64,000 nt of DNA, taken from a virus. A program made the position numbers and the translations under genes. The stretch lies in UHGV virus genome UHGV-0200554. The stretch is one strand, 5' to 3'. Below, in pieces: positions 640-22,083 of this stretch (the stretch's first letter is position 1; each line of letters begins with the position of its first letter). The notes under the pieces were generated by a model that made no database searches, was not told the DNA's origin, and worked only from the letters and a program-made list of their open reading frames with translations.

Positions 640-2091
640 CTATTTAACGTTTTCAATCAAATCTATAGTTCTGCCAAAAGATGGCGTATAGTCTTTGTTA
701 CCACCTTCTGTCCTAATCCAGAGCGTATTATACTTATCCCAACCGTTGCTGTCAACCTCTTTTTCAAAACCTGATTCAAGAAACAGGTCAGTAAAGATAA
801 TAACATCCTGAACATCAGACAGATGTTTATCCAGATATTCAAACACACAACCTGCACGAGTACCGAACGTAGACTTGATCTGGTAGTCTGGCATCTGTGC
901 AATATTCTGGTGAGTGTATACCTGAACATCACCAACTTCTGTTGACCAACAGAACATCGTAACTTTAAACTCTTTATACAGGCTGCACAACCCGCTGATT
1001 TCTGAAGTGATACGTTTCAGAGTCCGTGGAGAGATAGAGCCTGATACGTCGAATGCCACCACTATATCAATCGTTTTCTCCTGGTTGCGACCTGGGAGAA
1101 TAACAGACTGGCGATTGTTGATAGCCCCTCTGCTACGCAATGTGTGAGTTAAAGCACCAGAGCGACGGGCCGGACGACGATAAGTCATATCAGCTTTCCG
1201 GTGTGACAACATACGTTGACGAATCACATCCAGATAGTTGATGATAGGCTTATTGCGATTCTTGATCCACTCACGCACCTGTGCCGGACCTTCACCACCT
1301 GCCGCTTTCATAGCAGCTTCCATCATGTCACCAGAGTCCTGCATTGCTGCATCTTTCTCTGCCTGAGTCATTGCTGGTTGGTTGCCTTTTTCGTAGCCCA
1401 TAGCTTCACTGAGGTTGTCAGACTGGCCTTGTCCGTCCCCCATGTGAGTATCTGTGGCTCGTAGACCACCGCCACTAGCTTTACCTGGTTGTTGCTGTTG
1501 CTGTTGTTGTCTTTCCAGGTCTGCATAAACTTTTTCAGTTATCCACCCGTGGTATTTCTTATCACAATAACAATATTCAAGAAATGCAAACGGCTGGCCT
1601 TTTTTCAGCTGTGTGCGAATCCCGTGTGGGAACATTGCACATGGCGGTTCGGCTAAATCTACCATCAGACCAGTATTAATAACGTGGTCAGCGGCCTGAT
1701 TAAACAGGTTGTGATCAGAGAAGGCTTTACCACGGCTGAGGTGATCAGCAATGATGTGACCTATCTCATGGCACAGGAGAAAAGCAACCTCTTTAAGCGT
1801 TTTAGGTGCATAGAAAGCGTCCAGCTGTTCTTTCATCTTATCATCGCACTTAGGCAGAATGATAGCACGGCGTTCCTGGCAAACACCTATGATGAACTCT
1901 GGATTGTAGTAAATCCGCTTATGGTCTGTGGCGATAGTGTCACACCATGTGTGGTTCTCAACAAATTGTAAGCCTGACAGGAGCACACCGTAGAAGCTCA
2001 ATCTTTCCATGAGCCACATGCGAGCACCCTGAAGCATACGTAGAGCTTCTGGTTTCTGTGCTAAAATCAGTTCTGAACTTCTTGCGTCCAC
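640..2091 (-). CDS. vWA-domain protein with HExxH zinc-metallopeptidase-like motif
   Basis: HEIGH motif in N-terminal half; MIDAS-like DVSGS motif (IVVAFDVSGSIS) in C-terminal half; GTG start with GGAGG RBS. Confidence 0.7.
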   Translation of the reverse strand: MDARSSELILAQKPEALRMLQGARMWLMERLSFYGVLLSGLQFVENHTWCDTIATDHKRIYYNPEFIIGVCQERRAIILPKCDDKMKEQLDAFYAPKTLKEVAFLLCHEIGHIIADHLSRGKAFSDHNLFNQAADHVINTGLMVDLAEPPCAMFPHGIRTQLKKGQPFAFLEYCYCDKKYHGWITEKVYADLERQQQQQQQPGKASGGGLRATDTHMGDGQGQSDNLSEAMGYEKGNQPAMTQAEKDAAMQDSGDMMEAAMKAAGGEGPAQVREWIKNRNKPIINYLDVIRQRMLSHRKADMTYRRPARRSGALTHTLRSRGAINNRQSVILPGRNQEKTIDIVVAFDVSGSISPRTLKRITSEISGLCSLYKEFKVTMFCWSTEVGDVQVYTHQNIAQMPDYQIKSTFGTRAGCVFEYLDKHLSDVQDVIIFTDLFLESGFEKEVDSNGWDKYNTLWIRTEGGNKDYTPSFGRTIDLIENVK

Positions 2092-2104
2092 TACGATCCT
2101 CCAA

Positions 2105-2122
2105 AGGGGGCAAAAGCCCCCT
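2105..2122 (-). terminator. GC hairpin (7-bp stem, AAAA loop) between tandem minus-strand genes
   Basis: AGGGGGC-AAAA-GCCCCCT perfect inverted repeat; weak U-tract, so terminator or processing site. Confidence 0.4.
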
Positions 2123-2142
2123 CGTTGTTATTTTCTGCTATC

Positions 2143-3177
2143 TTACACCTTTTTAAAGATGTTTGCAAGCTCTGCCATCGTCATGTTAGTCGTTTTCATG
2201 AGGTCAGTCATCGCCTTTTCCATCACAGGTGTAACTACCATGAAGTTGCCTTTGACAAAACCTTTATCGCGATCAGCCACCAGGATAGATTTAAGGCCGT
2301 CACCCAGACGTTCACCAGTCAGTGCACAACATTTTTTCTGGTACACTTGTTTGAACTGTCCGAATGTCAGATCTACTTTCATGCCTATATCATAGAAGAC
2401 CTGACAGTAGAAAGCGTAAGCCTGAGCAATAGCCACATCTGGTGGTAATGCCTGAGGTAGCGGTTTAGGCTCTTCAGGAGCGTCTGTACGGTCCTCAACA
2501 ACTTCGGCTTGTACTTCTTCAACTTCAGCCGTTTCTTCAACCACAGGCTCACTCATGATGTTCCTGACATGTTTTTCAGCACGTTTGTCCATGAACTCAC
2601 GTAATTCCTGTGCAGGTGTCATAGGTTCTTCCTCCTTAGCTTCAATTTGTTGCAAAAGTGCTTCACCACCCAACAGGCCAAGTTCAGCTTTGTCATCTTC
2701 AGAGCCATATTGGCGCATGAAGTTTTCGAAAGAGTATTCTTCTTTCAAGGCCTCCATACTTTCTTCTGACAGGTGTAGCATCATCTGCTGAACAATTTTA
2801 CGGTCAGTACGGTCTTTAATAAGGACCGCATTCTTCTTATCAACCAGCGAATCCTTGAGTTCATTACACCGTGTTCCGACCACACAGCAGTTATGCAGAG
2901 CATACGCCCCGTCATCGTCGATACGCTCTAACGATGGGTAGAACGGGTTGCCTAAACCGTTCTCGTCAGTGTGCATATCAAAAGGAAGAAGAGTGTAGTC
3001 ACATACACCGTCCCCAAGTAATTTCTTACCGAAGAACAGCCACTCTTCCCACGTCAACGTAAACATGATGCCCCTTTTCTTAGCATTACCTTGTTTACGT
3101 TTATACTTTTTATTCAGCTTCTCCAACTCCCACGGTTGATAGCAGCCCTCCAGATATTGAATGTGTGTCTTAGCCAT
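2143..3177 (-). CDS. hypothetical Cys-rich protein
   Basis: ORF track; 344 aa; Cys/His cluster (GDGVCDY...HNCCVVGTRCNE) suggests metal binding; no confident family. Confidence 0.55.
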   Translation of the reverse strand: MAKTHIQYLEGCYQPWELEKLNKKYKRKQGNAKKRGIMFTLTWEEWLFFGKKLLGDGVCDYTLLPFDMHTDENGLGNPFYPSLERIDDDGAYALHNCCVVGTRCNELKDSLVDKKNAVLIKDRTDRKIVQQMMLHLSEESMEALKEEYSFENFMRQYGSEDDKAELGLLGGEALLQQIEAKEEEPMTPAQELREFMDKRAEKHVRNIMSEPVVEETAEVEEVQAEVVEDRTDAPEEPKPLPQALPPDVAIAQAYAFYCQVFYDIGMKVDLTFGQFKQVYQKKCCALTGERLGDGLKSILVADRDKGFVKGNFMVVTPVMEKAMTDLMKTTNMTMAELANIFKKV

Positions 3178-3315
3178 AGCAAATGTCCTTGCTTGTGTTT
3201 ATGTAAGGCGAACATTAGCATGAAAATTAATTCTTGTCAACTGAAAAATGTTGTTGACTTTTGGTTCATCTTGATCTATTCTTCGCCAATAACAGAACGA
3301 GAGAGGAACCTTTCA

Positions 3316-4211
3316 TGTTTGAGCATCATATTACACCATTTGACCCTATGAGTCAAGCCCCAACAGATGTAGGAACAATACTTTCTTCTTTGTATGAGAG
3401 TATCCTGTACCGTCGCAGACTATTTACAGCTTGCCATCCATTCTACAACTTCATAGCAAACGCGATCAATACCACACTCAACAGTGCAGGCTTTGACGAT
3501 TTCCACTGGGTCTTCACTAAAGAAGACAAACCGGACAAGGTTTTTGTAGGCAGCTTCAGCATGGAGATCAATAAGGCTGTGTCATGGCAGCGTGCAGGTT
3601 GTGTCATGTTCCGTTTCCAACAAGGTTTTGCCTCTATAGCGGAGCATCCTTCTTTTATGAACGGCATTGAAGGTGGAGAGAAAGGTTTCTTCAAAATGCT
3701 TGCAAAAGTATTTGACATGCAGCCTTTTATGATATATGTTTATTATAGCCTGAATGGCAGGAGCGTATGCTACTCTTCAGATATCTCTATTGATCTGCTT
3801 GACTTGCCATACGTTTTCTGCTACGATGGAAAAATAACTAGCAGGATGACTGGTAATCAGAATGTAGCAGACTTCGCCCCGTTGCAGATTAAGTCACGGG
3901 AATACACAGCTTTGGGTGGAGAACCTGTTATGTTGATCAACAAGTATCACACAACAGGGGAATTTCTGATGTTCCAGTACCGGAAGCGGGATAGCCGGAT
4001 GGAGTATGCCCGTGTCAGCTCAGACACTCTGGAGTCATTTCAGGGTGAGGATGGTAGCTATACAGCTGAATCTCTTGAAGTTATGGAAGCGATGGGAATA
4101 AAAGATCAATTATGGGTTGACAACCTGTTGGGTAATGAGTTAGAATTACTACGTCCTATGTTGAAGTGGGACGAAGAAACTAAAGCTAAATACGAAGGAG
4201 ACTTCCAATGA
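3316..4211 (+). CDS. hypothetical protein
   Basis: ORF track 3261..4211; start moved to ATG at 3316 with GAGAGGAA RBS. Confidence 0.55.
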
Positions 4212-4486
4212 AAAAACACCAGATTTTTCACGTAGGTGAAGACGCACAGGCAGATGCTGTATGGTTCGCAATGCACCACACAACGGATGACGAACTGGCT
4301 ATGGGCCATGCATTCGTTAACCCTGGTGATAAACTGCCGTATCCTGGTGATTATGTTGTGGCAGCAATGGACGGTTACACTTTGTGTTTGCGGGTAACTA
4401 AAATCTTCCTGGATCCGCGCCACAATCATCGTCTGGTTCTGGCATTTGAAGAAGCTCCTGCATATGCTCTGGGGGATGGAGAATGA
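4208..4486 (+). CDS. hypothetical protein
   Basis: ORF track; ATGA stop-start overlap with neighbours (operon). Confidence 0.55.
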   Translation: MKKHQIFHVGEDAQADAVWFAMHHTTDDELAMGHAFVNPGDKLPYPGDYVVAAMDGYTLCLRVTKIFLDPRHNHRLVLAFEEAPAYALGDGE

Positions 4487-4761
4487 AAGTAGTTGTATTA
4501 CGCAATCTTGAACCTGTGATGCTGGATCAAATTACACTTCTGAATAAAGGTGAGTGTTTAGCTGTCTGTATCCCTGAACAAGACATAGCCTACCTGATGG
4601 GATGCTTACCGGAGAATGTGGATAAAAAAATAGCTCATTTAAAGGAAAAAGGTATAGAAGATTTATTGAAGCACGGGTATGGTGATTCTATCTTTGCAGC
4701 CGAAGAGTTCATCAATCCGTCTGAATGTGTAGCAGAATTTGAAGTGGAGATCGAAGAATGA
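4483..4761 (+). CDS. hypothetical protein
   Basis: ORF track; ATGA overlap coupling. Confidence 0.55.
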   Translation: MKVVVLRNLEPVMLDQITLLNKGECLAVCIPEQDIAYLMGCLPENVDKKIAHLKEKGIEDLLKHGYGDSIFAAEEFINPSECVAEFEVEIEE

Positions 4762-5024
4762 AAAAAGTTGTAAACGTTTATCTGAATGCAGAAGAAGTTA
4801 AAGTTGATGGTAGCCTTTTTGAAGTTGGCGATCTGATGATTATCCACTTCGTAAAAGAGGATAAAGGATACATCTCATTGAACCTGCTGGAGTATGTTCC
4901 TGAAGAGATGATGCCTACAGTGTGTCAGGCTTTGTATGCAGGTGGTGATTCTAAACCTCTGGCAGAGCTGAATATTGGCCCTAAAAATCTGGTCATCTCT
5001 ACAACAGTAGACGTGGGAGAATGA
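4758..5024 (+). CDS. hypothetical protein
   Basis: ORF track; ATGA overlap coupling. Confidence 0.55.
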   Translation: MKKVVNVYLNAEEVKVDGSLFEVGDLMIIHFVKEDKGYISLNLLEYVPEEMMPTVCQALYAGGDSKPLAELNIGPKNLVISTTVDVGE

Positions 5025-5395
5025 CTATGGCACAGTGGAACAAGACGCTGGATTTATCTGACTGGTGGGCAGGACTACCACTTGGGGATGGTACAATCCA
5101 GGTATGGACTGGCAATAATGTCCACAAGTTCGCCAAACGGATAGCCCGAAAAATAGCTGAACTCTACCCACGGCAATTAAACAAAGATTGCCCAGAGTAT
5201 GATTGGGTTCTTGATGATGTGGTTGATCACTTCCTGGCAATTCTCCCACCAGAGGAGTTCAACAAACAGGTTCACGCCTACATCAACGAAGAAACTGATT
5301 TTCTGGTCACACCTATAGAAGATTTCAATTATGCTATGTCTGAGCTTTACGACTGGGCAGACAGGCACAATCTATGGGTGAAAACAACTTTCTAA
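5021..5395 (+). CDS. hypothetical protein
   Basis: ORF track; overlap coupling with upstream gene. Confidence 0.55.
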   Translation: MTMAQWNKTLDLSDWWAGLPLGDGTIQVWTGNNVHKFAKRIARKIAELYPRQLNKDCPEYDWVLDDVVDHFLAILPPEEFNKQVHAYINEETDFLVTPIEDFNYAMSELYDWADRHNLWVKTTF

Positions 5396-5410
5396 CACGG
5401 AGGTTGATCT

Positions 5411-5662
5411 ATGTCAAACAAATACAGAGAATTAGACTTTGACAGGGACTACGAAAAGTATTATCATAGCGGCATGAGGGGTGGATCACGCAGGTGCACC
5501 CCTGCATACTTCTACGCTAATCGGGCAATTGACCCACAAGAAGTTGTAGCTTGCAGAATGGCTTATAATTTCGACATAGCGTATGGCATCCCTGTCTTCG
5601 ATGTAATGACAGAACTTGAAAACTTTGAACATACTTACGAAGTAAGAGAGGAGCTTTACTAA
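5411..5662 (+). CDS. hypothetical protein
   Basis: ORF track; GGAGG RBS upstream. Confidence 0.5.
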   Translation: MSNKYRELDFDRDYEKYYHSGMRGGSRRCTPAYFYANRAIDPQEVVACRMAYNFDIAYGIPVFDVMTELENFEHTYEVREELY

Positions 5663-6855
5663 TGTCAAGAAATATTTTCGAGAGTGGGCAGATTACGGTT
5701 CGTGAATTGCCCACTATGATCAAGTTTGCCAAGCGTCACGGCAAATCTTTATTTATACTGGGTTCTCCGGGCGTTGGTAAGAGCCAGGTCATCAAGCAAA
5801 CTGCCGATAAACTGTTTGGAGAACGGGAAGATAACCTGATTGATATCCGTCTGTCGGATAAAGACCCAACAGACCTGTCTGGCCTGCCTGTTCCGGTGAC
5901 AGAGGAAGATGGCACTACTCGCACTGTGTTTGCCACACCTAGCTTCTGGCCTACTGACCCAGACTGGGAAGGTATTATCCTGCTGGATGAAATGAACCAT
6001 GCAGATAATTTTCTCCAGAAAGTAGCCATGCAGATCATGTTGGACCACAAATGTGGTTGCTACAAATTCCCGAAAGGTGCGGTGTTTGTAGGTGCAGGTA
6101 ACCGTTCTGGTGATGGTGCAGTGCTGTCTGTGTTGGAAGCACCTCTGGCAAACCGTTTAACGATTGTAGAAGTTATCCCAGATGCCAACGTCTTCCTGGA
6201 AGACTATGCATTCTCACGAGGTGTACATTCTTCTGTGATCGGTTATCTGAAACGCCAGCCGTCATCGATTGAGAACTATGAAGCAATGGCAGACTGCAAC
6301 TGTCCTGCATTCGCCACACCTCGTTCATGGGTGACTGCTTCGGATATTATGTGGGACCTTGATCGCCATCTGGTTTCAGAAGCTGAAGCCCGTGTCTTGT
6401 TACAAGGGACGATTGGTCACACGATGATGTTGGAGATTATGACTTACCACATGAAGAAACGCAATCTGCCGGAGATTGGGGATATCTTTGCTGGGGCTGT
6501 CAAAGAGTTCAAAGGTCAGAAATCTCCAGACCTCATCTGGATTCTGGGTTCAGAAGGTTGTATTGGTTTACGCAACATGATGGCTAACATTGAAGTTGAT
6601 GATGACGAAGTGGTTAGCAGTGCTGCAAACTTCCTGGACTACTTATGGAGTAACTTCCAGAACGACAACAGAGACTTCGTATTCTCTGTGTTCAAAGCAA
6701 TGATTAGCCCGAATGCACTTGGCAATGCTATTCTGGTGAACAAAGAGCATGGTCGTGAGAAAATCATGGCTAAACTGATTAAAGCGTACCCTAACCTGAT
6801 GGCTATCGTCAAACAGTTTGGGGAAGAGTTCCGTGACTTGTTAGCTAAGGCTTAA
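5662..6855 (+). CDS. AAA+ ATPase, MoxR-like
   Basis: Walker A GSPGVGKSQ, Walker B ILLDEMNH; about 400 aa. Confidence 0.75.
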   Translation: MSRNIFESGQITVRELPTMIKFAKRHGKSLFILGSPGVGKSQVIKQTADKLFGEREDNLIDIRLSDKDPTDLSGLPVPVTEEDGTTRTVFATPSFWPTDPDWEGIILLDEMNHADNFLQKVAMQIMLDHKCGCYKFPKGAVFVGAGNRSGDGAVLSVLEAPLANRLTIVEVIPDANVFLEDYAFSRGVHSSVIGYLKRQPSSIENYEAMADCNCPAFATPRSWVTASDIMWDLDRHLVSEAEARVLLQGTIGHTMMLEIMTYHMKKRNLPEIGDIFAGAVKEFKGQKSPDLIWILGSEGCIGLRNMMANIEVDDDEVVSSAANFLDYLWSNFQNDNRDFVFSVFKAMISPNALGNAILVNKEHGREKIMAKLIKAYPNLMAIVKQFGEEFRDLLAKA

Positions 6856-6865
6856 GGAGTGCACA

Positions 6866-7234
6866 ATGGCTGCATTAGGTAAGAAACGCCGTGGTAATTT
6901 CCTGGTGGTCTTGACAGACCATCCAGAGGAAGAGTATCATTGCAGATCAACACGGGTTATCCCAGTCCAGGATCGTGAAGGTGATGAAATCTGGGATGAA
7001 TTAATGTTGACTTGTTCTGACAGTGAATATTTCTTCATCTACGTTAAAGACAAAGCAGGTTTCTTTGAAAATGATGATCTGCTGCGTTATGATATTGCAG
7101 ATATGGTAAGAGCTTGCCACAAAGACAGTGCTGAACTCTTCGGTCTGCAACTTAAGGATAAAACTTTCTTCTATCAGGACGAATGCGTGGAGATTTACAG
7201 GGAAGTGGAAGATGAATTACTCCACGATAACTGA
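6866..7234 (+). CDS. hypothetical protein
   Basis: ORF track; RBS AAGGAG upstream. Confidence 0.5.
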   Translation: MAALGKKRRGNFLVVLTDHPEEEYHCRSTRVIPVQDREGDEIWDELMLTCSDSEYFFIYVKDKAGFFENDDLLRYDIADMVRACHKDSAELFGLQLKDKTFFYQDECVEIYREVEDELLHDN

Positions 7235-7293
7235 TACTAATCCACAACACTTTGCCCCTCTTACTGAGGGGCTAACTGCTATGGAGCTGACCA

Positions 7294-9309
7294 ATGATTA
7301 TTAAAAGTGACCATAAAGAAGCAACCATTCTCGGTAAGAGTGAAGTTACCACAGGGACAATTGCGCTGAATGCTGAGACGTTTGGCCTGATTATCAAAGG
7401 TATTTACAAAGATCCTTTACTTGCTTCCTGCCGTGAGCCTATCTTTAATGCTGTGGATGCTCATGTTGAAGCGGGTCGTAAAGATGTGCCTATCAAGATC
7501 CATACACCAACCGACCTTGAGCCTTACTTCTCTGTACAGGACGAAGGCCTCGGCATGTCTGAAGAGACTGTACGCACAATCTTTATGACATTGGGCGACT
7601 CCACTAAGCGTCAGAGCAACGAATTGGTGGGTGCCAAAGGTATTGGTTCGAAAGCACCTCTGAGCAAGGTGGAAGCCTTTAACGTTATAAGCGTCTATAA
7701 CGGCACAAGAAGCGAATATCTTGTCTTTATGGACAAAGGTATACCGAAAGTCACTAAAACGCGTAGCGAGCCTTCTACGCAGCATAACGGCATCACAATC
7801 AGGTTCCCTGTGAACAAAAAAGATGTGTCTGCGTATCGCCATGCAATAGCTTCATGCCTGAACTATGCTAAGTTTCCGTTTGAGGTGTCGGATCCGATCA
7901 CCACACGGATGCTGGAGCAATTTAAAAGCAACATTGACTACACATACAAAAAAGATGGGTGGACTCTGTACATCTACCACGGCAATACTTGCTCTCTGGA
8001 AAGTCGTGTTGTGATGGGGCACCAGCCTTATCGTTCAGAGTATCTTGAATCTATGATAGATTATCCGCGTCTGGTGGTAGAGATTCCGATTGGTGATTGC
8101 GATATCAACCCTGGCCGTGAATGGACGATTGAAGGTGATGATGATGGTGGGTTCCTTGAACAACTGAAAGCCTTTGTGGACGAAGGTATCAGTAAACGTG
8201 GTGAAGAGATTGAAGTGCTGCTGAATAAAGCCACTTCTGCTATTGAAGCTCGCCGTATCATTAAAGAGTCTGGTGGCTTCTTCTCGCGTCTGGTAGGCTG
8301 GAAGTTTATGACTGCTAAATGGAAAGCCATAATGCAGGGGCATACTGTCCCAGTTATCAGTGAGTTGCCTGTGTTTGTAGGTGGTACTCGGATTGGCGCT
8401 AACTCTCTGAAACGAGATATGTACGGACCTTCTGAGTTTTCAGCAGGTCGTAAGCTGGTACTGAATGACGCAAATGGTAAATTCAACCGGATTAAATGTA
8501 ACTATCTGGCTAATGAGACTAGTCGCAACGTCTACTATGTAGAAGACCCATACCTGTCAGAAGAGTTGGCTAAGTATGTGGACGATCCATTCTACAGTGA
8601 CGTGCTGTTCCTGTTGTCTGAGCTGCCTAAGCCACCAAAAGACCAACGTCAGGCGAGCAGTACGTATCAGCCGGGTTATTTTGTCAAAAAGCTGGATGAA
8701 CACGGTTGGTTCTGCCGCGAACGCATAAGCAAGCAGGATTTTAAAGATATCAAGTATTGCATCCCGTATGATGGGGATATCCAAAGAGGCCGTAGTTGGT
8801 TGGGTGAGAACAATAACATCTACCAACAGGATCCGGTAGTCTTCCGTGAGGCCTTTGGTATCCCACAGGATGAAGATGTTTACATGGTTGCTGAAAGTCG
8901 CTTGACATGGGTGGCAGAAGATTGTAAGATTATCACAGAGGTTGATGCAAAACCTGTTCTGGAACAGGACGCCTGGAACTGGCTCTTGATGAGAGCTGCA
9001 AACACGACAGGTTACACAAAATACAAAATGCAACTGGGTAAACTGGGTGTGAAAATGTGCATTGACCCAGAAGTAAAAGAAAACGAGTATAAGGTTCGTA
9101 TGTGGATGGGATGCTACTCGTGGAAGTACAGAGATCTGGCTGACAGAGCAGATCATCTTGTGAACCTTCATGTGAAGTGTGCTCGCCGCTACATGGATGG
9201 TGTATACCAACGCTACCCGTTGCTGAAACGCATCCATGGGGATCACTGGGATAAACCGGAAGTTATTGAATATATTGAATTAATGAAAGCTAAGAAGGAG
9301 ACTGAATAA
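7294..9309 (+). CDS. GHKL (Bergerat-fold) ATPase domain protein
   Basis: N-box EPIFNAVDAH, G1 box DEGLGM, G2 box GAKGIGSKA near N-terminus; remainder unassigned. Confidence 0.6.
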   Translation: MIIKSDHKEATILGKSEVTTGTIALNAETFGLIIKGIYKDPLLASCREPIFNAVDAHVEAGRKDVPIKIHTPTDLEPYFSVQDEGLGMSEETVRTIFMTLGDSTKRQSNELVGAKGIGSKAPLSKVEAFNVISVYNGTRSEYLVFMDKGIPKVTKTRSEPSTQHNGITIRFPVNKKDVSAYRHAIASCLNYAKFPFEVSDPITTRMLEQFKSNIDYTYKKDGWTLYIYHGNTCSLESRVVMGHQPYRSEYLESMIDYPRLVVEIPIGDCDINPGREWTIEGDDDGGFLEQLKAFVDEGISKRGEEIEVLLNKATSAIEARRIIKESGGFFSRLVGWKFMTAKWKAIMQGHTVPVISELPVFVGGTRIGANSLKRDMYGPSEFSAGRKLVLNDANGKFNRIKCNYLANETSRNVYYVEDPYLSEELAKYVDDPFYSDVLFLLSELPKPPKDQRQASSTYQPGYFVKKLDEHGWFCRERISKQDFKDIKYCIPYDGDIQRGRSWLGENNNIYQQDPVVFREAFGIPQDEDVYMVAESRLTWVAEDCKIITEVDAKPVLEQDAWNWLLMRAANTTGYTKYKMQLGKLGVKMCIDPEVKENEYKVRMWMGCYSWKYRDLADRADHLVNLHVKCARRYMDGVYQRYPLLKRIHGDHWDKPEVIEYIELMKAKKETE

Positions 9310-10526
9310 TGTCAAACTGCTCAACCGTATCTGTATACGTGCGTACTTACAAAACTCGTAACGATGCTCGTGTAGCAAAAGCAAAATACGAAAGTCGCGG
9401 CTTTCCAGTAGGTAAACCATACCTTCTTGATGGTGAATGGTGGATAGACGTACATTCCCCAGTAAGTTGCGACATTGATAATGAATTTATGGAAGTGGAA
9501 TACCACTATGCAGAGTTCCCTTCTCGTGGGGAGGCTCGTAAGTTCAAAGAGAACTGCATGGAAGGTTCCACAATTATCGACCGTGGCCCTTATGCGACTG
9601 TACCGCGTTGGGTGGTCAAATACCCTGGCGATGTAGTAGGGGTATTACACTGGGAAAATGTAAGTCCTAAAACCCTTGTTTACACCCCAGCAGAAAACGC
9701 AGTGACTTACGATGTTGGCACTTTGGTGCCAAATAATGACCCTGTGGTGGTTATCTTCGGTAGCATGATCCAGATTATCACTCGTGAAGATACCTACACT
9801 GTAGAGTCTGAGGACAACGAAGCACTCTACAAAGAGGTATTTGCAAGAGTTAGTGCTAACGACTTCGATAGTGCTATTCAACTCATTAAGGACGCTGAAA
9901 AAGAGAGTAGTGAAGGTTATGAAGTGCTGGATGAAGAGAATCATCTTATAATGCTTGATGGTGAACTCTTCTACTACGGTGTACATCTGACTTCTACTAT
10001 CGCCAAACGTATTGAAAAGGATGCAGCAGAAGGTACTTTGGATGACCGCTATATTAAGTTCTTGGTCCGTCTGCTTCGTAACCCGTCTGCTAAGTCTGTA
10101 GAAATGCTCTACGACTTTATGCAGGCAAATGATATTGACATTCTACCAGATGGTCGTATAGAATGTTTCCGTGGTGTCACCCAGCTACCTGACGGAAGTT
10201 GCGTAGACTACCATTCTGGTAAAGTCCCACAATACGAAGGTTGCTTTATCTCAATGCCTCGTAACTTTGTAGAGGATAACCCAGAGGTGGCTTGCTCTCA
10301 CGGTCTGCACTGTGCAAGCGCTGAGTATGCCAAAGGTTATGGCGTGTTAACTAAAGTAGCTGTTGACCCAGCAGATGTGGTTAGCGTACCATATGACTAC
10401 GATTTTGCTAAATGCCGTTGCTGCCGATTCGAAATACTCACGGCCCCTGCTAAACGTACAGAGGGTATCCCAGATGAGTATGTAGTTGACCGAGATGGCA
10501 ACGTAATAGAAGAGATCTTCTTCTAA
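9309..10526 (+). CDS. hypothetical protein
   Basis: ORF track; 405 aa; start overlaps previous stop. Confidence 0.55.
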   Translation: MSNCSTVSVYVRTYKTRNDARVAKAKYESRGFPVGKPYLLDGEWWIDVHSPVSCDIDNEFMEVEYHYAEFPSRGEARKFKENCMEGSTIIDRGPYATVPRWVVKYPGDVVGVLHWENVSPKTLVYTPAENAVTYDVGTLVPNNDPVVVIFGSMIQIITREDTYTVESEDNEALYKEVFARVSANDFDSAIQLIKDAEKESSEGYEVLDEENHLIMLDGELFYYGVHLTSTIAKRIEKDAAEGTLDDRYIKFLVRLLRNPSAKSVEMLYDFMQANDIDILPDGRIECFRGVTQLPDGSCVDYHSGKVPQYEGCFISMPRNFVEDNPEVACSHGLHCASAEYAKGYGVLTKVAVDPADVVSVPYDYDFAKCRCCRFEILTAPAKRTEGIPDEYVVDRDGNVIEEIFF

Positions 10527-10535
10527 GGAGGAAGA

Positions 10536-11924
10536 GTGGGAGAACATACTTATGAGATTGGCACGGATGCCGCTCTCGCCGCTGTGTTATGTGGTGAAAA
10601 CGTCTATATCAGCGGACCTGGCGGGACCGGGAAGACTCATCTTTTACAAGATATACAGTCTTTACTTGGCGAATCCTGTATGGTTGTTGCCCCAACAGGG
10701 GTAGCCGCGCTTAACGCGGGAGGTGTTACCGCACACAGAGCTTTTGACCTGTCAGCAGGTGTGACTGTCCCAGAAGACTTCACAGAGATTCGTTCTAAAA
10801 CAGCAAAACCTCTCAAAAGTAAAGCGCTACGGACTTTAGTCATTGATGAAGTGTCTATGGTCCGTGCGGATAAGTTTGTGGAGATGGATAAGAAACTCCA
10901 GCACCTCCGTAAAACCAGTGAACCTTTCGGAGGTTTACAGGTGATCATGTTTGGGGATTTCTACCAGGCACAACCTGTTATCTCTACGCAAGAAAGGGAG
11001 GACTACTACAAATATTGGGATACTGACCTTTGTTTCTATACCCAATCGTGGAAAGATCTTAATCTGAAATGTGTTGCCCTTGTGGAGCAATTCAGGCAAG
11101 AGTCAATCCGGTTTGCCACAATGCTGAACTGCGTTCGTGAAGGTAGGAGAACAGGCGATGTGGTTAAAGAATTAAACTCTCGTTGTTACCACGGGGGGCA
11201 GGCCTCTGATGCTATCATCCTTTGCTCAACCAACAAAAGAGTGGAGGAGATAAACAGAGAGTTCTATGACCGTATTGATGGTGAGGAGAGGATGTATAAA
11301 GGGACGCTGAAAGGTAAATTCCCTCCCAATCAGCTACCTGTGGAAGATTTGATGTGCCTTAAAGTGGGAATGAAAGTCATGATTGTTGCCAACGACCTTA
11401 ATCCTAATCACAAAGTTCCTTGTTATGTTAACGGTTCTCGTGGCACAATATTAAAATTCTATGATGATAAGGTTGACATTGAACTAGATAATGGTACACT
11501 TGTGACTGTACCTAAAAAGCTATGGGAAAGCTACGAATACAAACCGTCCCTGAAAATGGATTGGAAGGCTCGTAAACAGAAAAGAGTGATTGAGAGAATA
11601 ACCACAGGGTCATTTGAACAGTTGCCTTTGAAGTCTGGATACGCGTACACAATTCACAAAAGCCAGGGTCTTACGTTAGATGCCTATAACTTGGATCTTG
11701 GTAAGAGAGGCGCATTCGCAGCGGGAATGACTTATGTTGCTCTTAGTCGTGCTAAGAAAATTCAGAGCATTACCCTCTTGCGTCCTGTCAGAGAAAGTGA
11801 TATTATTGTAGACCCAAGAGTGGTACAGTTTTACGCTGATACGTTCCCGGGGTTGGATGAAAAAGTAAGAAAAGATCTTGAAGTCAAAGTTAAAAAGGAG
11901 GCCGAGAATGAGTCTACTGGCTAA
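10536..11924 (+). CDS. SF1B DNA helicase (Dda/RecD/Pif1-like)
   Basis: Motif I GPGGTGKTH, motif Ia VVAPTGVAA, C-terminal YAYTIHKSQGLTLD. Confidence 0.8.
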   Translation: MGEHTYEIGTDAALAAVLCGENVYISGPGGTGKTHLLQDIQSLLGESCMVVAPTGVAALNAGGVTAHRAFDLSAGVTVPEDFTEIRSKTAKPLKSKALRTLVIDEVSMVRADKFVEMDKKLQHLRKTSEPFGGLQVIMFGDFYQAQPVISTQEREDYYKYWDTDLCFYTQSWKDLNLKCVALVEQFRQESIRFATMLNCVREGRRTGDVVKELNSRCYHGGQASDAIILCSTNKRVEEINREFYDRIDGEERMYKGTLKGKFPPNQLPVEDLMCLKVGMKVMIVANDLNPNHKVPCYVNGSRGTILKFYDDKVDIELDNGTLVTVPKKLWESYEYKPSLKMDWKARKQKRVIERITTGSFEQLPLKSGYAYTIHKSQGLTLDAYNLDLGKRGAFAAGMTYVALSRAKKIQSITLLRPVRESDIIVDPRVVQFYADTFPGLDEKVRKDLEVKVKKEAENESTG

Positions 11925-12231
11925 TGTGGTTAATTATGTCGCCGATATTGATACATCTGAACCACAAGATGTAACAGTGCACGACTTTACACAACGTCAT
12001 AAAAATCATGATCTTTTGTTGGTGGCAGACAGTGAGGATTATGATGTTTACCATGCTTTTGTGTTCTCTGATACTGTTTTTGAAGTAGGTCAATTCCTGA
12101 CTGTTAACTTCGGAGAAGATACAGGTGTGGAAGATATTGTAACTTTCATTATCGAAGGTCTGGATTGTGTTGACGAAGACGGTACTGCGTTTGAATTGAT
12201 TCTTCGTGTTGTAGAAGAGCTTGACATATAA
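11908..12231 (+). CDS. hypothetical acidic protein
   Basis: ORF track 11878..12231 trimmed to ATG at 11908 with AAGGAGG RBS. Confidence 0.45.
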   Translation: MSLLANVVNYVADIDTSEPQDVTVHDFTQRHKNHDLLLVADSEDYDVYHAFVFSDTVFEVGQFLTVNFGEDTGVEDIVTFIIEGLDCVDEDGTAFELILRVVEELDI

Positions 12232-12297
12232 TCCCAACTTTGGTAACATCAGAAGCATGAAGGGGAGTAGGTGCTCCCCACTACTAAGGAGACAGTC

Positions 12298-12588
12298 ATG
12301 GCTAACAAATTACACAGTTTCTATCTAGATTTCACACACGAAGAGTATGTATGTGAATGCCTATGCCGAGTCCAATTGCCAGATTACAATGAACGGGCAT
12401 CGGACATTGATTACTACGGCTTCCGCGAAATCGCAGAGATTGAAGTCTACAAAGATGGTAACAAATTACCGTTCTTACCTAAAGGTTTACGTAATAAAAT
12501 CAACTTTGCAGCACACAAAGCTCTGGAAGAACACTTGCACTCTGCTGATGTGCTCTCTTCGTTTGCTGAAGAAACAGGTGGCTTTTGA
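12298..12588 (+). CDS. hypothetical protein
   Basis: ORF track trimmed to ATG 12298 with AGGAGA RBS. Confidence 0.5.
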   Translation: MANKLHSFYLDFTHEEYVCECLCRVQLPDYNERASDIDYYGFREIAEIEVYKDGNKLPFLPKGLRNKINFAAHKALEEHLHSADVLSSFAEETGGF

Positions 12589-12782
12589 TGGATGTTAAAA
12601 TTCTGAGCTTCAACTTAAGTGTCAGTTATGAGTGTGCTGAACAACAGTTGGCTAGTTACCTAAGACTTGGCTACAAGATCAAAGGTCAATCTCATAACGA
12701 CAAATACCTTATTTATACTTTAGTTGAAGATTCTCCAACACTCGAAGATAAAGAACGAAAACAATGTATGGGAGGCTTCTGA
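12585..12782 (+). CDS. hypothetical protein
   Basis: ORF track; overlap coupling. Confidence 0.45.
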   Translation: MMDVKILSFNLSVSYECAEQQLASYLRLGYKIKGQSHNDKYLIYTLVEDSPTLEDKERKQCMGGF

Positions 12783-13063
12783 TGGCTGCTGATGTAAAAA
12801 TTATCGGGGTCCCGTGTATCGATAGTTGCCTTAATTCTCTGGAAGAGGATTTAAGCAAATATGTTGACGAAGGTTATGCTATCACAGGCCAATGCATAAC
12901 ACCTCAGGGCAATATCATCTATACACTGGTTAAAAACGTAGACGAAGCTAAGGTTGTTCCTACGCCAACACCAGTGCTTGAAGAGATCGATATTGATTTT
13001 GTTCTGGAAACACTGGAAGCAGACTGGATCAAAAACAAAAGTAGGAGGGTAGCTAAAAAATGA
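12782..13063 (+). CDS. hypothetical protein
   Basis: ORF track 12764..13063; probable start ATG 12782; sequence similar in pattern to previous ORF (possible paralog). Confidence 0.45.
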   Translation: MAADVKIIGVPCIDSCLNSLEEDLSKYVDEGYAITGQCITPQGNIIYTLVKNVDEAKVVPTPTPVLEEIDIDFVLETLEADWIKNKSRRVAKK

Positions 13064-13533
13064 TTTACGAAAGTGACTATATCTGGAAGATTGGCCCTGC
13101 TGCACAAGATCTGATTGAAGTGCCACGGGAAACGCTACAAAAAGCTGCTTTTAAGTTCCGTGATCTTGCAGTGATTGGTAACAGGATCCTGAAATATCTT
13201 AAAAACAAACGTTATGTTGAAGAGAAGTTCTTCGGATTGATCAAAAAAGAAACTACAGTATGGGAACACTACTTGAAAGAGTCTCAGAGCTTCTATGCTG
13301 GGCTGGGCGTAGCTCAGATGGTGATGCATGACGGTTACATCAACCCAACTGAAATGCGTTGCCTACGCTACGCTATAAGCGATTACCCTGGGTTCCTGAA
13401 GTATCATTTAACTGGCACAGCCTCTGAAAAGATTTATCTGACAGAGGAACATTTCGAACAACTGAATAAAATTTTAAACATAGACTTGACATTAGTCTCA
13501 ACAGAGTATACAATTGGGATTCGTGTCGAGTAA
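13060..13533 (+). CDS. hypothetical protein
   Basis: ORF track; followed by terminator. Confidence 0.55.
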   Translation: MIYESDYIWKIGPAAQDLIEVPRETLQKAAFKFRDLAVIGNRILKYLKNKRYVEEKFFGLIKKETTVWEHYLKESQSFYAGLGVAQMVMHDGYINPTEMRCLRYAISDYPGFLKYHLTGTASEKIYLTEEHFEQLNKILNIDLTLVSTEYTIGIRVE

Positions 13534-13538
13534 TAACA

Positions 13539-13565
13539 GCCCTGCCCGAAAGGGCGGGGTTTTTG
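13539..13565 (+). terminator. rho-independent terminator
   Basis: Hairpin CCTGCCCGAAAGGGCGGGG followed by TTTTT. Confidence 0.6.
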
Positions 13566-13585
13566 TGTTTGGAGGGCTAAATAGT

Positions 13586-14320
13586 ATGAAGCAAGGTGTA
13601 GTGTGGGCTTTATTCAATGGCTCCGATATTGCTGTCAAACCCTGGGCTGATGCAGGGTATTTGTGCTTCTGCTTCAATGCAGAAGGGGCAGATCACGGGA
13701 GCTATGCAGAGGTAGTAGAAGAACATCCCAACATTAAGTACATAGATTACTGGATTGACCCGTGGTTCCCACAAGAAACCTTGGGGATGTATCCTGCACC
13801 AGATTTCATCCTGTCGTTTCCACCATGTACCCACTTAGCGGTATCTGGAGCAGCACATTTCAAGAAAAAATTACAAAAAGATCCGTTGATTCAGGTCAAT
13901 GCTGTAAAAGATGCACGTATTGCAGAAACATTGGGTAACATGTATAATTGTCCGTGGCATGTGGAGAACCCTGTTGGGGTTATGTCTAATATGTGGCGTA
14001 AACCAGACTACAAGTTCCATCCGTCTGAGTATGGTGGCTATCTGCCGGAAGATGACCAGAACCCGTGGTTCCCTGACCTGATTAAGCCCAGAGATGCTTA
14101 TCCGAAGCTAACCTGTGGATGGTTTGGGAATGGTTTTGTTGTCCCTGAGAAACGACCTGTGCCGCAGATTTGTGATGTAAATGGGTATTCTTTCCAACAT
14201 ACCAAACTGGGAGGAAAATCTCCTCGTACCAAAATGATCAGAAGCCTGACACCTCGTGGTTGGGCATTAGCCGTGTTTGAAGCCAACGAACCCGTTGTAA
14301 GGAGCAAACTCAATGGTTGA
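13586..14320 (+). CDS. C5-cytosine methyltransferase-like protein (short, atypical)
   Basis: Motif I-like LFNGSD, motif IV-like SFPPCT (PC-T instead of PCQ), motif VI HVENPVG (ENV); start ATG 13586 with GGAGGG RBS. Confidence 0.45.
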   Translation: MKQGVVWALFNGSDIAVKPWADAGYLCFCFNAEGADHGSYAEVVEEHPNIKYIDYWIDPWFPQETLGMYPAPDFILSFPPCTHLAVSGAAHFKKKLQKDPLIQVNAVKDARIAETLGNMYNCPWHVENPVGVMSNMWRKPDYKFHPSEYGGYLPEDDQNPWFPDLIKPRDAYPKLTCGWFGNGFVVPEKRPVPQICDVNGYSFQHTKLGGKSPRTKMIRSLTPRGWALAVFEANEPVVRSKLNG

Positions 14321-14984
14321 CTGGAGCAAATATTTCACCTACAGTGACGGTAAACTGTTCTGGGCGTATACCGCAAAAGCCGGAAGAGGCAGGGTTATAC
14401 ATCACGCAGGCGAGGAGGCCACAGGTACAGACACAGATGGCTATAGGGTGATAAGTGTGTCAGGTGTTGGACGTGTTAGTAGGCATAGAATAATTTGGGA
14501 GATGCATTACGGGGAGATACCTGAAGGCCTTGTTGTGCGGCACAAGAACGACATAGCAGGCGATGATAGGATAGAGAACTTAGTCCTAGGAACACAGGGA
14601 GATAATGTACGAGACATGATCTACAGTGACAAATTGAACATTAACAATACCTCAGGGTGTCGAGGTGTATGCTACCATAGGGGTGTAAAAAGATGGATTG
14701 CATCTGCTGGAGACATATATTTAGGATGTTTTAAGACAAAAGAGGATGCAATTACATGCAGAAAGTTATGGGAGGAGGGAAAATTCGTCCCGCAAGAATT
14801 AGATGTTAGAAATACCAGCGGTGTAACAGGGGTGTTCTATGTGCCAAGCTCTGGAAGGTGGAGAGTTAGAGTACAAAGTGGCAAAAAGAGAAAGAGCTAT
14901 GGTAGTTACAACACTTTAGAAGAAGCAAGAGCTGTAAGGGACAGAGTGATGAAAGAGATTGAGGAGTCTAAAGATGGGGAATAA
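14313..14984 (+). CDS. HNH homing endonuclease with two AP2-type DNA-binding domains
   Basis: HNH_3-like N-terminus (GYRVISV...RHRIIWE...HKN...DNRIENL-like), two AP2-like repeats (GVCYHRGVKRWIA..., GVFYVPSSGRWRVRV...). Confidence 0.7.
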   Translation: MVDWSKYFTYSDGKLFWAYTAKAGRGRVIHHAGEEATGTDTDGYRVISVSGVGRVSRHRIIWEMHYGEIPEGLVVRHKNDIAGDDRIENLVLGTQGDNVRDMIYSDKLNINNTSGCRGVCYHRGVKRWIASAGDIYLGCFKTKEDAITCRKLWEEGKFVPQELDVRNTSGVTGVFYVPSSGRWRVRVQSGKKRKSYGSYNTLEEARAVRDRVMKEIEESKDGE

Positions 14985-17900: not shown

Positions 17901-18015
17901 CGATGTGAAACCTCAACCAAAATCTGTTGACGCAGAAGGGGAAGAAGATGATGGAGTGGATGATCAGAGTGTAATCCAACAGGAGTTCCCTGAGGATGAA
18001 GATTGTCCGTTCTGA
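14974..18015 (+). CDS. bifunctional DNA primase-helicase (T7 gp4-like), intein-containing
   Basis: TOPRIM motifs (IIVCEGEGD, VLAFDNDAAND), Walker A GPSGGGKTT, helicase motif split by intein; acidic C-terminus ending DEDCPF; ATG 14974 with GAGGAG RBS. Confidence 0.8.
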   Translation: MGNKFIPSAYSRYGEPNPVATRYKSGGSMARDYRDEKEVETVETVLENTKIVPVPQQNIGLTAAQYFGVRSALSQEDGVTVVATYFPYYNRYGNLSGFKKRDWSKPKEQKGHWSVVGIVKANSQFFGQKMVGEGSDHRKIIVCEGEGDVIAAWQTEWMMVRKIATDPSSNKKAKAWAQSVLDGIKAVQDGGSAKGFPTINVVGLNCGCANAVDAFANNEKFIRGFDEIVLAFDNDAANDVEKLKHVTKGVEATHNVAAFLMADNVFHVQYPSEVNDPEGYKDIRDLFQAKKYDQIHDMFKNPIKYVPDAVAGLNDFSIEDLRKKSTNGVDIGAEFPKLQKMLKGLHKGTLVMLTGPSGGGKTTVAKKIEHQIAKYLMDPTVAKADDYDPEDRLCMIHLEEDPEEAINSLYANQLGYDIKNFMEDPSKYLTEQEHFEIHKAWVDADKIRVFRHFGSIPVNDLITKLKQMVCLYHCRYIVLDHLSMVISGLNVKDERKELDLAMTQLAAFCKQFNVFILVIAHLRRTEIIPPKDKEGRALPFWYPVRKENLRGCVSADTEFLTPQGWKRIDNYAEGDLVAQHDENGVMTFVTPKAYINLPCEEMWHVSNTHVVDMLLSDEHRVVYVNDRTPDVFRTKTMLEVVYDHNNKPSGMRGKIPATFLTGCNGTLGLTDDQLRLQVAVNADGTVLTESTGRVAVRIKKDRKKQRLEMLLEKTNTTYRRLDLHGVHEGRTEYQFKAPCGYKGVTGEWFNLKQHELEIICDEVMYWDGDSVNKNRVSTINKLEADFLQFAYSACGHRTSLSMKENNSGFGGSYNCKPLYEVNVCNTKYMHIRKGSNNKPSIERVPSPDGRKYCFTLPSGMWVARRNGHIFITGNSGSMEQLSWVVIGVEAEEMPDRSRGRVRLVSLKNRPAKTLGIADVLIMNPETGKFSDASDWVWDKETGFFLNKDGDIVWRPQDMFDNEEHVVVETPEGKVTADVKPQPKSVDAEGEEDDGVDDQSVIQQEFPEDEDCPF
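16627..17595 (+). other. intein (about 323 aa) inserted in helicase motif of primase-helicase
   Basis: Starts with Cys after ENLRG, ends ...ITGN followed by Ser; removal restores LRG-SGSMEQLS matching the T7 gp4 DLRGSGALRQLS motif; possible degenerate LAGLIDADG-like segments inside. Confidence 0.7.
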
Positions 18016-18079
18016 TGCTTAACTGAGAGTGGGGAGAGCAGTACAGCCAACTCCCCCTTACATGTAAGGTATTAATAAT

Positions 18080-20866: not shown

Positions 20867-20932
20867 TAAATCAATAACTTACGTAACATACTGGAGGGGA
20901 ATACTTCCCCTCCCCAATCAGGAGAGTTAGCC

Positions 20933-21184
20933 ATGACAGAACGTGAAGTAATCCCAGTAGTATGTGTTTACGCAGCAGGTGAAGATGACGGTTATCCACA
21001 CCTGGAAGGTTTATTTGTTGAAGGCCATGAGTACGTACTCGTCCGGTCAGAGGAAGAAGACGAAGAAGGGATCTACCTGGTTAAAGACGAAAGAGTACCG
21101 TTTGAATGGTCAGCAATAGAACAGGAAGATGGTGTGTGGACTGTCGAAGGTCTGGAGCTGATTGCAGAATTCGAAGAACTTTAA
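20933..21184 (+). CDS. hypothetical acidic protein
   Basis: ORF track; RBS AGGAGAG. Confidence 0.5.
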   Translation: MTEREVIPVVCVYAAGEDDGYPHLEGLFVEGHEYVLVRSEEEDEEGIYLVKDERVPFEWSAIEQEDGVWTVEGLELIAEFEEL

Positions 21185-21195
21185 GGGGCACCACA

Positions 21196-21417
21196 ATGGA
21201 AGACTGTATCTTAGTAAAAGCTAAATTCGTCAATCCTAGAGCATTTTGGTTTACAGAAGGTGGTACTTACGTACTCCAGAAGTCTCCTCAAATAGCTGGC
21301 AATTTAATAGTCATTGACGACGATGGTGAATCATGGTTCACAACTCCACAGTTTGACGGTACGTGGGAAGTAGTGGGCACTTACACTCACGCTGTATTCG
21401 AGGAGATAGAGGAATGA
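21196..21417 (+). CDS. hypothetical protein
   Basis: ORF track 21106..21417 trimmed to ATG 21196 (RBS AAGGGG). Confidence 0.45.
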   Translation: MEDCILVKAKFVNPRAFWFTEGGTYVLQKSPQIAGNLIVIDDDGESWFTTPQFDGTWEVVGTYTHAVFEEIEE

Positions 21418-22045: not shown

Positions 22046-22054
22046 TATTAACTA

Positions 22055-22083
22055 TTGACAAGCGTGGCGGGGTTATGTATAAT
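22055..22083 (+). promoter_or_regulatory. sigma70-like promoter, consensus TTGACA-17-TATAAT, -10 in hairpin loop
   Basis: TTGACA 22055-22060, TATAAT 22078-22083; CGGGG...CCCCG inverted repeat brackets the -10. Confidence 0.6.

Follow-up and report, generated by a model that had tools for sequence, protein, structure and literature searches.

The window analysed here is a 64,000-nucleotide (nt) stretch of the virus genome UHGV-0200554, near whose left end lie genes for a protein with a vWA domain and a zincin HExxH motif, a MoxR-class AAA+ ATPase and a GHKL ATPase. In an earlier note, made from the sequence without database searches, these three were taken for one possibly chaperone-like or DNA-manipulating module at the start of the replication genes. 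Profile searches recover all three open reading frames (ORFs) with the domains proposed for them, and a replication module does follow, with a helicase (Table 1) and, farther downstream, genes for a methyltransferase, an HNH endonuclease, a primase-helicase and a family A DNA polymerase. Very probably, the locus holds two independent and already described phage accessory pairs side by side, MoxR with the vWA/zincin protein and rIIA with rIIB, the former most likely serving host-specific counter-defence and the two being adjacent through the synteny of the lineage.

The proteins of the window share 53-72% identity with their counterparts in Vequintavirus (rV5-like) coliphages and are encoded in exactly the same order (YP-6, Bas48 and Bas58 were checked), and a relative with 98% identity in the MoxR ATPase was found on a Logan contig of 138,965 bp. 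At the nucleotide level the phage is too divergent for comparison, a megablast comparison of the 11.5-kb region with phage genomes returning a single 70%-identical patch, and protein searches were therefore used. The source is a new rV5-like (Vequintavirinae-related) myophage, in which both pairs lie in the early/middle region just upstream of the replication genes.

The locus is organised around an intergenic region at 3178-3314, which divides a leftward unit, made up of a gene for an Srd-like protein of 344 amino acids (aa) and then the vWA/zincin gene, from a rightward unit that runs from a ~298-aa gene through five small ORFs, the MoxR gene and a 122-aa ORF to rIIA, rIIB and the helicase. 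The same division is given by the gene calls of the 98%-identical Logan relative, and the divergent layout is shared by YP-6, Bas48, Bas58 and Bas54. Promoter-like hexamers face both ways (3254-3282 on the plus strand, 3356-3328 on the minus strand), with no enrichment of such hexamers over shuffled sequence. The vWA/zincin gene thus lies upstream of MoxR on the opposite strand, as the earlier note had it, but the two are not directly divergent: their starts are ~3.6 kb apart, with the 344-aa minus-strand gene and six plus-strand ORFs between them. Likewise, the GHKL gene, described as lying two genes after MoxR, is the second gene after it, with one 122-aa ORF in between, and the 405-aa gene at 9309-10526 that comes next had been overlooked.

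Identity of the encoded proteins

The protein encoded at 640-2091 matches DUF2201_N (PF13203, putative metallopeptidase; E 1.7e-30, 107 bits against a cut-off of 23.2) and DUF2201 (PF09967, VWA-like; E 6.2e-11, 42.9 bits against a cut-off of 26.4), with the peptidase domain N-terminal and the VWA domain C-terminal, an order shared by 20 of 20 homologues among the matches listed (25-97% identity). The HExxH motif reads HEIGH and occupies residues 108-112. Its H108, E109 and H112, as well as D348, S350, S352, T411 and D435 of the MIDAS motif (metal-ion-dependent adhesion site), are invariant in all 67 full-length relatives (67/67), and the HExxH motif is therefore a feature of the family rather than a chance occurrence. 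Because it is conserved across the family, the peptidase is probably active, as far as the sequence allows this to be judged; in the literature on DUF2201 proteins, no experimental report of peptidase activity was found. The structural model (pLDDT 83) comprises a helical N-terminal domain, a disordered, low-confidence linker rich in Gln and Gly (~200-225, with disorder at 202-224) and a C-terminal VWA fold. Comparison with M48 and M78 gave motif-level, sub-threshold matches only, and single-sequence searches of the PDB returned nothing useful.

In phrog_1314 and in many GenBank records (among them N4 gp25, CR9 gp127 and PVP-SE1), this family carries the label 'HNH endonuclease'. Since Pfam shows only DUF2201_N and DUF2201, with no detectable HNH domain, the label is a propagated misannotation. 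Two further sequence elements touch the gene. A perfect sigma-70 consensus (TTGACA, 17 nt, TATAAT) lies on the minus strand at 755-727, inside its 3' end, and faces small leftward ORFs (378-656 and beyond). In the 51-nt gap that separates it from the 344-aa gene, a GC-rich hairpin at 2105-2122 (AGGGGGC-TTTT-GCCCCCT on the coding strand) stands just upstream of the GGAGG ribosome-binding site and GTG start of the vWA gene, and might act in partial termination or in stabilising the RNA.

The product of 5662-6855 matches phrog_1297 (E 3.8e-101) and is 72% identical to the 'MoxR ATPase' of Vequintavirus. In Pfam, neither AAA_3 (PF07726) nor AAA_5 (PF07728) rises above threshold, and AAA_14 and bpMoxR are sub-threshold (E ~0.006), so that its place in the MoxR class is argued from transitive and structural evidence. 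AAA_3 and AAA_5 do occur in homologues at 30-37% identity, one of these homologues being named 'MoxR family ATPase', and a profile of 35 relatives matches the AAA module of Midasin (E 7e-20). The Walker A motif (GSPGVGKS, residues 34-41), Walker B (D109/E110), sensor 1 (N147), Arg finger (R165) and sensor 2 (R221) can all be assigned, and G37, K40, D109, E110, N147, R165 and R221 are invariant among the 35 aligned relatives. In the structural model (pLDDT 88), a helix-2 insert and pre-sensor-1 β-hairpins are seen, at 75-91 and ~130-135, together with an additional C-terminal helical domain. The best 12 Foldseek matches to this model are chains of CbbQ2 (6l1q) and NorQ (E 8e-8 to 1.5e-6), those of NorQ coming from complexes with the VWA domain of NorD. 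The modelled fold and the homologues together place the ATPase in the MoxR class. NCBIfam gave nothing for either the MoxR or the vWA protein, and PADLOC yielded nothing meaningful for them, its one marginal match being that of MoxR to PDC-M54A (E 5.5e-4).

The GHKL protein aligns with phrog_612 'RIIA' over residues 1-668 (profile positions 1-723 of 725, E 1.1e-105) and with T4 rIIA by BLASTP at 28% identity over 294 residues (E 3e-21); it also matches HATPase_c_3 in Pfam (E 5e-10). Aligned with T4 rIIA, its Bergerat motifs I-III are intact (E48/N52/D55, D83xG85xG87 and G113xxG116xG118). It is ~53% identical to the rIIA of Vequintavirus and consists of an N-terminal GHKL (Bergerat-fold) domain and a C-terminal region that varies by lineage, in line with the description of rIIA as a GHKL domain followed by a variable C-terminus (Iyer et al., 2021, PMC7824862). 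Among phage records, 2,653 contain a homologue; of the matches listed, those with an annotation are mostly named rIIA. The identification also draws on the 405-aa gene, which begins at the stop codon of the GHKL gene. Its product is 39% identical to T4 rIIB over 164 residues (E 2e-32) and matches phrog_609, phrog_3803 and further 'RIIB' families (with E values as low as 9.6e-54), while PF26926 (Phage_T4_rIIB) was found on the 405-aa protein in the rIIB position of the near-identical Logan relative. The conserved core of rIIB is formed by the C-terminal ~160-235 residues, and the N-terminal region is specific to the lineage. By these sequence comparisons, 7294-9309 and 9309-10526 are rIIA and rIIB, the classical rII locus.

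Other assignments of the GHKL protein were considered and rejected. Its NCBIfam scores are 18.6 bits for topoisomerase VI B (cut-off 274) and 26 bits for HSP90 (cut-off 455), and beyond the ATP-binding lid there is no family-level match to topoisomerases, MutL or Hsp90. A single-sequence search of the PDB gave no match at E ≤ 1, and the GHKL matches in NCBIfam and PADLOC were all far below threshold. The rII locus of T4 permits growth on hosts with the RexAB abortive-infection system. Knock-down of rIIA or rIIB in T4, MM02, EdH4, SUSP1 and N4 leads to sensitivity to lambda RexAB, with no defect where RexAB is absent (PMC11879866); of these phages, EdH4 is a Vequintavirus and so belongs to the closest described genus to the phage of the window. 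In T6, RIIB sets off a bacterial gasdermin system (PMC10312443).

Table 1. Features of the locus, with positions in the window, strand and basis of the assignment
Feature	Position	Strand	Basis
vWA/zincin protein, 483 aa, GTG start, DUF2201_N + DUF2201	640-2091	-	Pfam
344-aa Srd-like gene, phrog_3118, labelled 'anti-sigma factor' in relatives	2143-3177	-	PHROG
Divergent intergenic region, 137 nt	3178-3314	no strand	read from sequence
~298-aa gene, ATG at 3315, no assigned function	3315-4211	+	ORF
Five small ORFs, no assigned function	4208-5662	+	ORFs
MoxR-class AAA+ ATPase, 397 aa	5662-6855	+	phrog_1297, homologues, fold
122-aa ORF, no assigned function	6866-7234	+	ORF
rIIA (GHKL ATPase), 671 aa	7294-9309	+	phrog_612, T4 rIIA
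rIIB, 405 aa, start overlaps rIIA stop codon	9309-10526	+	T4 rIIB, PHROGs
Dda/PIF1-like helicase, 462 aa	10536-11924	+	profile matches

Association of the two pairs and their genetics in Bas54

Co-occurrence was analysed in 82 loci, namely 80 IMG/VR loci around relatives of the ATPase, YP-6 and CR9, by running profiles of the window proteins, built by iterative search, on all ORFs of the fetched loci. The vWA/HExxH gene is present in 73 of the 82 MoxR loci, and the remaining 9 all end ≤1,064 nt downstream of MoxR. Where both genes occur, the vWA gene follows MoxR on the same strand at a distance of 0-970 nt in 70 of 73 loci; in the other three (two rV5-like, one PVP-SE1-like), it lies on the opposite strand and 3.6-3.9 kb upstream, as in the window. 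The split of the pair is a rearrangement specific to the lineage, since CR9, of the same subfamily, retains adjacent MoxR and vWA genes (and has no rII nearby). The scan of species-representative genomes with the vWA protein yielded 14 loci in metagenome-assembled genomes, all on phage-like contigs, with MoxR upstream in 11 of the 14 and two of the remaining three being contigs <1.5 kb; the search patterns used there were tailored to this subfamily and have little power for truly cellular homologues. N4 gp24 and gp25 are the same MoxR/vWA pair, and with E ≤ 1e-5 at least 516 sequenced phage genomes have a homologue of the vWA/zincin protein and 813 one of the MoxR-like ATPase, N4 gp24/gp25 included. 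The pair is present in N4-like podophages, in rV5-like and PVP-SE1-like myophages and in jumbo phages. As the two genes are almost always adjacent and co-oriented in relatives, the MoxR ATPase and the vWA/HExxH protein are a true partner pair, which bears out the pairing expected in the earlier note.

The genes that recur next to this pair in the 82 loci are those for thymidylate synthase (38), a 5'-3' exonuclease (23), an NDP-sugar epimerase (22), dihydrofolate reductase (17) and a QueE-like protein (14), and in N4 the gene after the pair encodes a dCTP deaminase. Its setting is therefore one of nucleotide and DNA metabolism, not of structural genes.

The rII genes follow a different distribution. 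The profiles built for rIIA and rIIB are sensitive enough to pick up the N4 proteins (E 1e-33 and 2e-24), and within ≤10 kb of MoxR rII is found only in the two rV5-like loci, the PVP-SE1-like locus, N4 and the window. The gap between MoxR and rIIA measures 439 nt in the window and is longer elsewhere: 937 nt for the rV5-like loci, 4,464 nt for N4 and 6,201 nt for the PVP-SE1-like locus. In the other 78 IMG/VR loci, rII is absent from the fetched flanks throughout (0/78), with ≥8 kb of downstream sequence available in 44 of them, and no MoxR or vWA gene is annotated in the regions fetched around the rII genes of T4. The GHKL ATPase, which the earlier note had grouped with MoxR and vWA, is rIIA with its own partner rIIB adjacent, and the two pairs are very probably neighbours by lineage synteny, not by joint function. 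As a separate observation, N4 (record positions 9938-22276) and the rV5-like phages, a podophage and myophages that are otherwise unrelated, have in common the order MoxR (plus vWA), rIIA-rIIB and superfamily 1 helicase in their early/middle regions, which could reflect an exchanged early-gene block.

Genetic evidence on these genes comes from transposon sequencing of the Vequintavirus Bas54, reported in the HIDEN-SEQ preprint (bioRxiv 10.1101/2025.11.20.689424). The gene map of Bas54 is collinear with the window, from 0055 (metallopeptidase) and 0056 (anti-sigma factor) through 0063 (MoxR), 0066 (rIIA) and 0067 (rIIB) to 0068 (helicase), and its MoxR, vWA/metallopeptidase, rIIA and rIIB genes are all non-essential on K-12 (bioRxiv 10.1101/2025.11.20.689424). 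In the comparison between K-12 and the uropathogenic isolate CFE311, whose values we took from the supplementary tables of the preprint (Table 2), MoxR and the vWA/zincin gene share a host-conditional requirement that the adjoining rII genes do not. Infective virions form without MoxR or vWA, given that insertions in these genes are tolerated at 94% of TA sites on K-12, and neither gene is needed for virion building.

Table 2. Transposon insertions in Bas54 orthologues of genes at the locus (log2FC, log2 fold change)
Bas54 gene	Product	TA sites hit, K-12	log2FC, CFE311	Adjusted p
bas54_0055	metallopeptidase/vWA	81/86	-2.20	0.009
bas54_0056	anti-sigma factor	55/55	-0.08	1.0
bas54_0063	MoxR ATPase	60/64	-7.23	0
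bas54_0064	hypothetical	20/22	+0.38	1.0
bas54_0066	rIIA	90/101	-0.01	1.0
bas54_0067	rIIB	56/59	-0.34	0.84

According to the main text of the preprint, bas54_0063 (MoxR) and an unrelated small gene, bas54_0140, are needed to overcome DS-28, a predicted two-gene defence system of CFE311, and knock-outs on K-12 with the cloned system bore this requirement out (bioRxiv 10.1101/2025.11.20.689424). In the literature, the composition of DS-28 was not found beyond the cited papers. The 122-aa ORF and the 344-aa Srd-like gene were considered as a third component of the MoxR/vWA pair and rejected: both are restricted to rV5-like and PVP-SE1-like loci, and their Bas54 orthologues have no conditional phenotype. 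Separately, bas54_0068, the orthologue of the helicase at 10536-11924, is non-essential on K-12 and strongly depleted in CFE311 (log2FC -6.32, adjusted p 0); it is not mentioned in the accessible portion of the preprint's main text and may be a conditionally required helicase.

Role of the MoxR/vWA pair

A single three-part module of vWA/zincin protein, MoxR and GHKL ATPase, chaperone-like or DNA-manipulating and attached to the replisome genes, would account for the crowding of the three genes into 8.7 kb beside helicase, primase and polymerase genes, for the retention of this layout in Vequintavirus genomes and for the same gene order in the middle region of N4. It is nevertheless extremely improbable, as the GHKL protein is a standard phage protein with a dedicated partner of its own, its scores against topoisomerase VI B and HSP90 fall far under the cut-offs, rII is lacking in the fetched flanks of the 78 more distant IMG/VR loci and near the pair in CR9, and the Bas54 phenotypes of MoxR and vWA differ from those of rIIA and rIIB. 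Moreover, none of the four genes is required for growth on K-12, and hence they are not parts of the replisome. Judged by the refutation test of the earlier note itself, the GHKL half of the proposal falls and the MoxR/vWA half stands. What survives of the proposal is the conserved MoxR/vWA half, for which chaperone-like remodelling fits the NorQ-NorD precedent, whereas nothing points to DNA manipulation.

For that half, a role in virions has been put forward: MoxR with a vWA protein carrying an N-terminal metallopeptidase was described computationally in jumbo phages of group 2.2, where it was proposed to act in virion assembly and processing (Iyer et al., 2021, PMC7824862). The architecture is the same as in the window, the conserved HExxH suggests a peptidase that is probably active, and the Acidianus two-tailed virus offers an analogy, so that the pair might be an assembly chaperone with a processing protease. 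The tolerance of both Bas54 genes to insertion on K-12, the metabolic rather than structural neighbours across the 82 loci and the presence in the window of a separate prohead-protease-like gene (58713-59768) make this very unlikely. We consider it still a little less likely that the pair is a chaperone for metal-cofactor insertion or enzyme activation in the manner of NorQD, CobST, BchID and CbbQO, serving for example ribonucleotide reductase, with an HExxH that binds metal and does not cut. The closest solved relatives do all remodel metalloenzymes (PMC13036017), the pair stands among nucleotide-metabolism genes in many phages, a weak match links it to the phage 'cobalamin biosynthesis protein' phrog_5298 (E 5.9e-5), and an NrdD-like gene is present in the window (62229-63974). 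Set against this, the genes are dispensable on K-12, the invariant Glu of the HExxH motif is typical of a hydrolytic zincin, and the MoxR knock-out phenotype was reproduced with the cloned two-gene defence system in a K-12 background, a result that speaks for immunity rather than metabolism.

We therefore regard host-specific counter-defence as the most likely role of the MoxR/vWA pair, rather than virion assembly or DNA metabolism, and, on the strength of the Bas54 genetics, a host defence component as the likeliest target. Several points weigh against this reading. The counter-defence role comes from one preprint and from an orthologue 61-72% identical, not from the phage of the window; validation against cloned DS-28 covers, of the two partners, the MoxR knock-out only; and the vWA/zincin gene is depleted only ~4.6-fold, in a whole-host comparison with 27 significant genes, a depletion that is not tied to DS-28. 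In Extended Data Table 8, the sheet Data S6, 'resampling_K-12_vs_CFE303', contains the CFE311 data (the command line given there refers to the 311 file, and the values equal those of sheet S7), so that the supplement lacks the CFE303 results; because the sheet repeats the CFE311 table, host specificity cannot be checked against a second isolate. There is also a slight possibility that the two pairs are more loosely connected in function, given the MoxR, rIIA-rIIB, helicase order common to N4 and the rV5-like phages.

The domains, the conserved residues, the pairing and the phenotypes of the orthologues are established observations; the complex, its protease activity and its target are inferred, the simplest reading being the ATP-assisted capture and cleavage of a specific protein. 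Following NorQ-NorD, the MoxR ATPase would assemble as a hexamer and one vWA protein would dock onto the ring; the MIDAS site could then grip an acidic residue of the target protein, ATP hydrolysis could strain the flexible linker that joins the vWA domain to the zincin, and the conserved HExxH domain might cleave, or otherwise act on, the target so held. In its most specific form, the pair would be an ATP-driven, MIDAS-targeted protease that captures and cuts a host immune component (DS-28 in E. coli), with the ATPase acting partly alone, hence the weaker vWA phenotype. This last proposal is tentative and rather doubtful as it stands.

Both pairs were already known, and what the window adds is a divergent member, plus the observation that in rV5-like and PVP-SE1-like phages a divergent promoter region separates MoxR from vWA, which elsewhere are adjacent. 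For the most part the finding is an ordinary one, and the question of the pair's role had been raised in the literature before, not by this window in particular. Two annotations should be corrected: the 'GHKL ATPase' is rIIA and the next gene rIIB, and the 'HNH endonuclease' label of the vWA/zincin family in PHROGs and GenBank is wrong. MoxR and the vWA/zincin protein are the part worth following; a first genetic hint ties the ATPase to overcoming host defence. Should the pair turn out to form a targeted protease that acts on immunity proteins, it would represent a new kind of phage counter-defence and a widespread, mechanistically new class of enzymatic anti-defence device.

Other features of the window and comparison with known systems

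Elsewhere in the window, an ORF-poor, AT-rich region (43900-45300, GC 0.37) marks the switch from plus-strand to minus-strand genes. It contains ~5 copies of an 11-nt tandem repeat, GTATAGGGGAA (45212-45270), an inverted repeat with perfect 17-nt arms (44664-44680 / 44763-44779) that occurs a third time at 44891-44907, and other dispersed repeats; no tRNA and no Rfam family above threshold was found in it. In Bas54, transposon insertions are not tolerated in an intergenic region of ~2 kb that lies between convergent gene blocks (HIDEN-SEQ, bioRxiv 10.1101/2025.11.20.689424), and the two regions may correspond to each other and perhaps serve as an origin or in regulation. The primase-helicase at 14959-18015 has 1,018 aa, compared with 692 aa in Vequintavirus, and carries a ~323-aa insertion at ~16627-17595 that starts with Cys (CVSADTEFLT...), ends in ...ITGN followed by Ser, and matches unrelated PHROGs (PhoH-like, ribonucleotide reductase); it looks like an intein, and no intein was called by Pfam on this protein. 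Between 26000 and 58700 lie ~100 small ORFs, none of ≥180 aa, without tRNA genes, an unusually long run that is typical of rV5-like early regions.

The rII genes of the window resemble those of T4 in the N-terminal GHKL domain with the same ATP-binding motifs, in the C-terminal core of rIIB and in the position of rIIB directly after rIIA, and differ in the C-terminal two thirds of rIIA and the N-terminal ~215 residues of rIIB, which have no detectable similarity; the orthologues of the Vequintavirus phages EdH4 and Bas54 occupy the same genomic position. Topoisomerase VI B, GyrB, MutL and Hsp90 share with rIIA the Bergerat ATP-binding fold of the N-terminal ~150 residues. In contrast to these GHKL enzymes of DNA metabolism and Hsp90, no transducer, dimerisation or DNA-gate domain was found in the rIIA of the window, and its NCBIfam scores lie 10- to 20-fold under the cut-offs.

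No biochemical study of the phage MoxR/vWA pair was found in the literature. Its closest counterparts, in the jumbo phages of group 2.2 of Iyer et al., N4 (gp24/gp25) and Bas54 (bas54_0063/0055), have the same two-protein architecture, the same catalytic and MIDAS residues and the same PHROG and Pfam families. The pair of the window differs from them in an ATPase too divergent for the Pfam AAA_3/AAA_5 thresholds and, together with the rV5-like and PVP-SE1-like phages, in having its two genes on opposite strands ~3.6 kb apart, whereas elsewhere they are adjacent. Among viruses, the Acidianus two-tailed virus also encodes a MoxR ATPase with a vWA partner (PMC7824862, PMC7159879); as described, that system has no peptidase domain and a structural role in tail assembly, in contrast to the Vequintavirus orthologues, which are dispensable for virions.

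Among cellular systems, NorQ-NorD and CbbQ-CbbO provide the closest solved ATPase folds, with 14-18% sequence identity in the structural alignments, together with a partner protein in which a disordered linker likewise separates an N-terminal domain from a C-terminal VWA domain with MIDAS. In NorQD, a hexameric ATPase binds one vWA protein, and the MIDAS of NorD is not required for binding to the ring (PMC13036017, PMC9976466); NorD itself is laid out as an N-terminal domain, a flexible linker and VWA (PMC9976466). In the phage model, no counterpart was identified of the VWA 'finger' by which NorD reaches into the pore of NorQ. The target of NorQ-NorD is a respiratory metalloenzyme, which that of the phage pair is not, and NorD has no zincin, while in the phage partner the zincin makes up the N-terminal domain.

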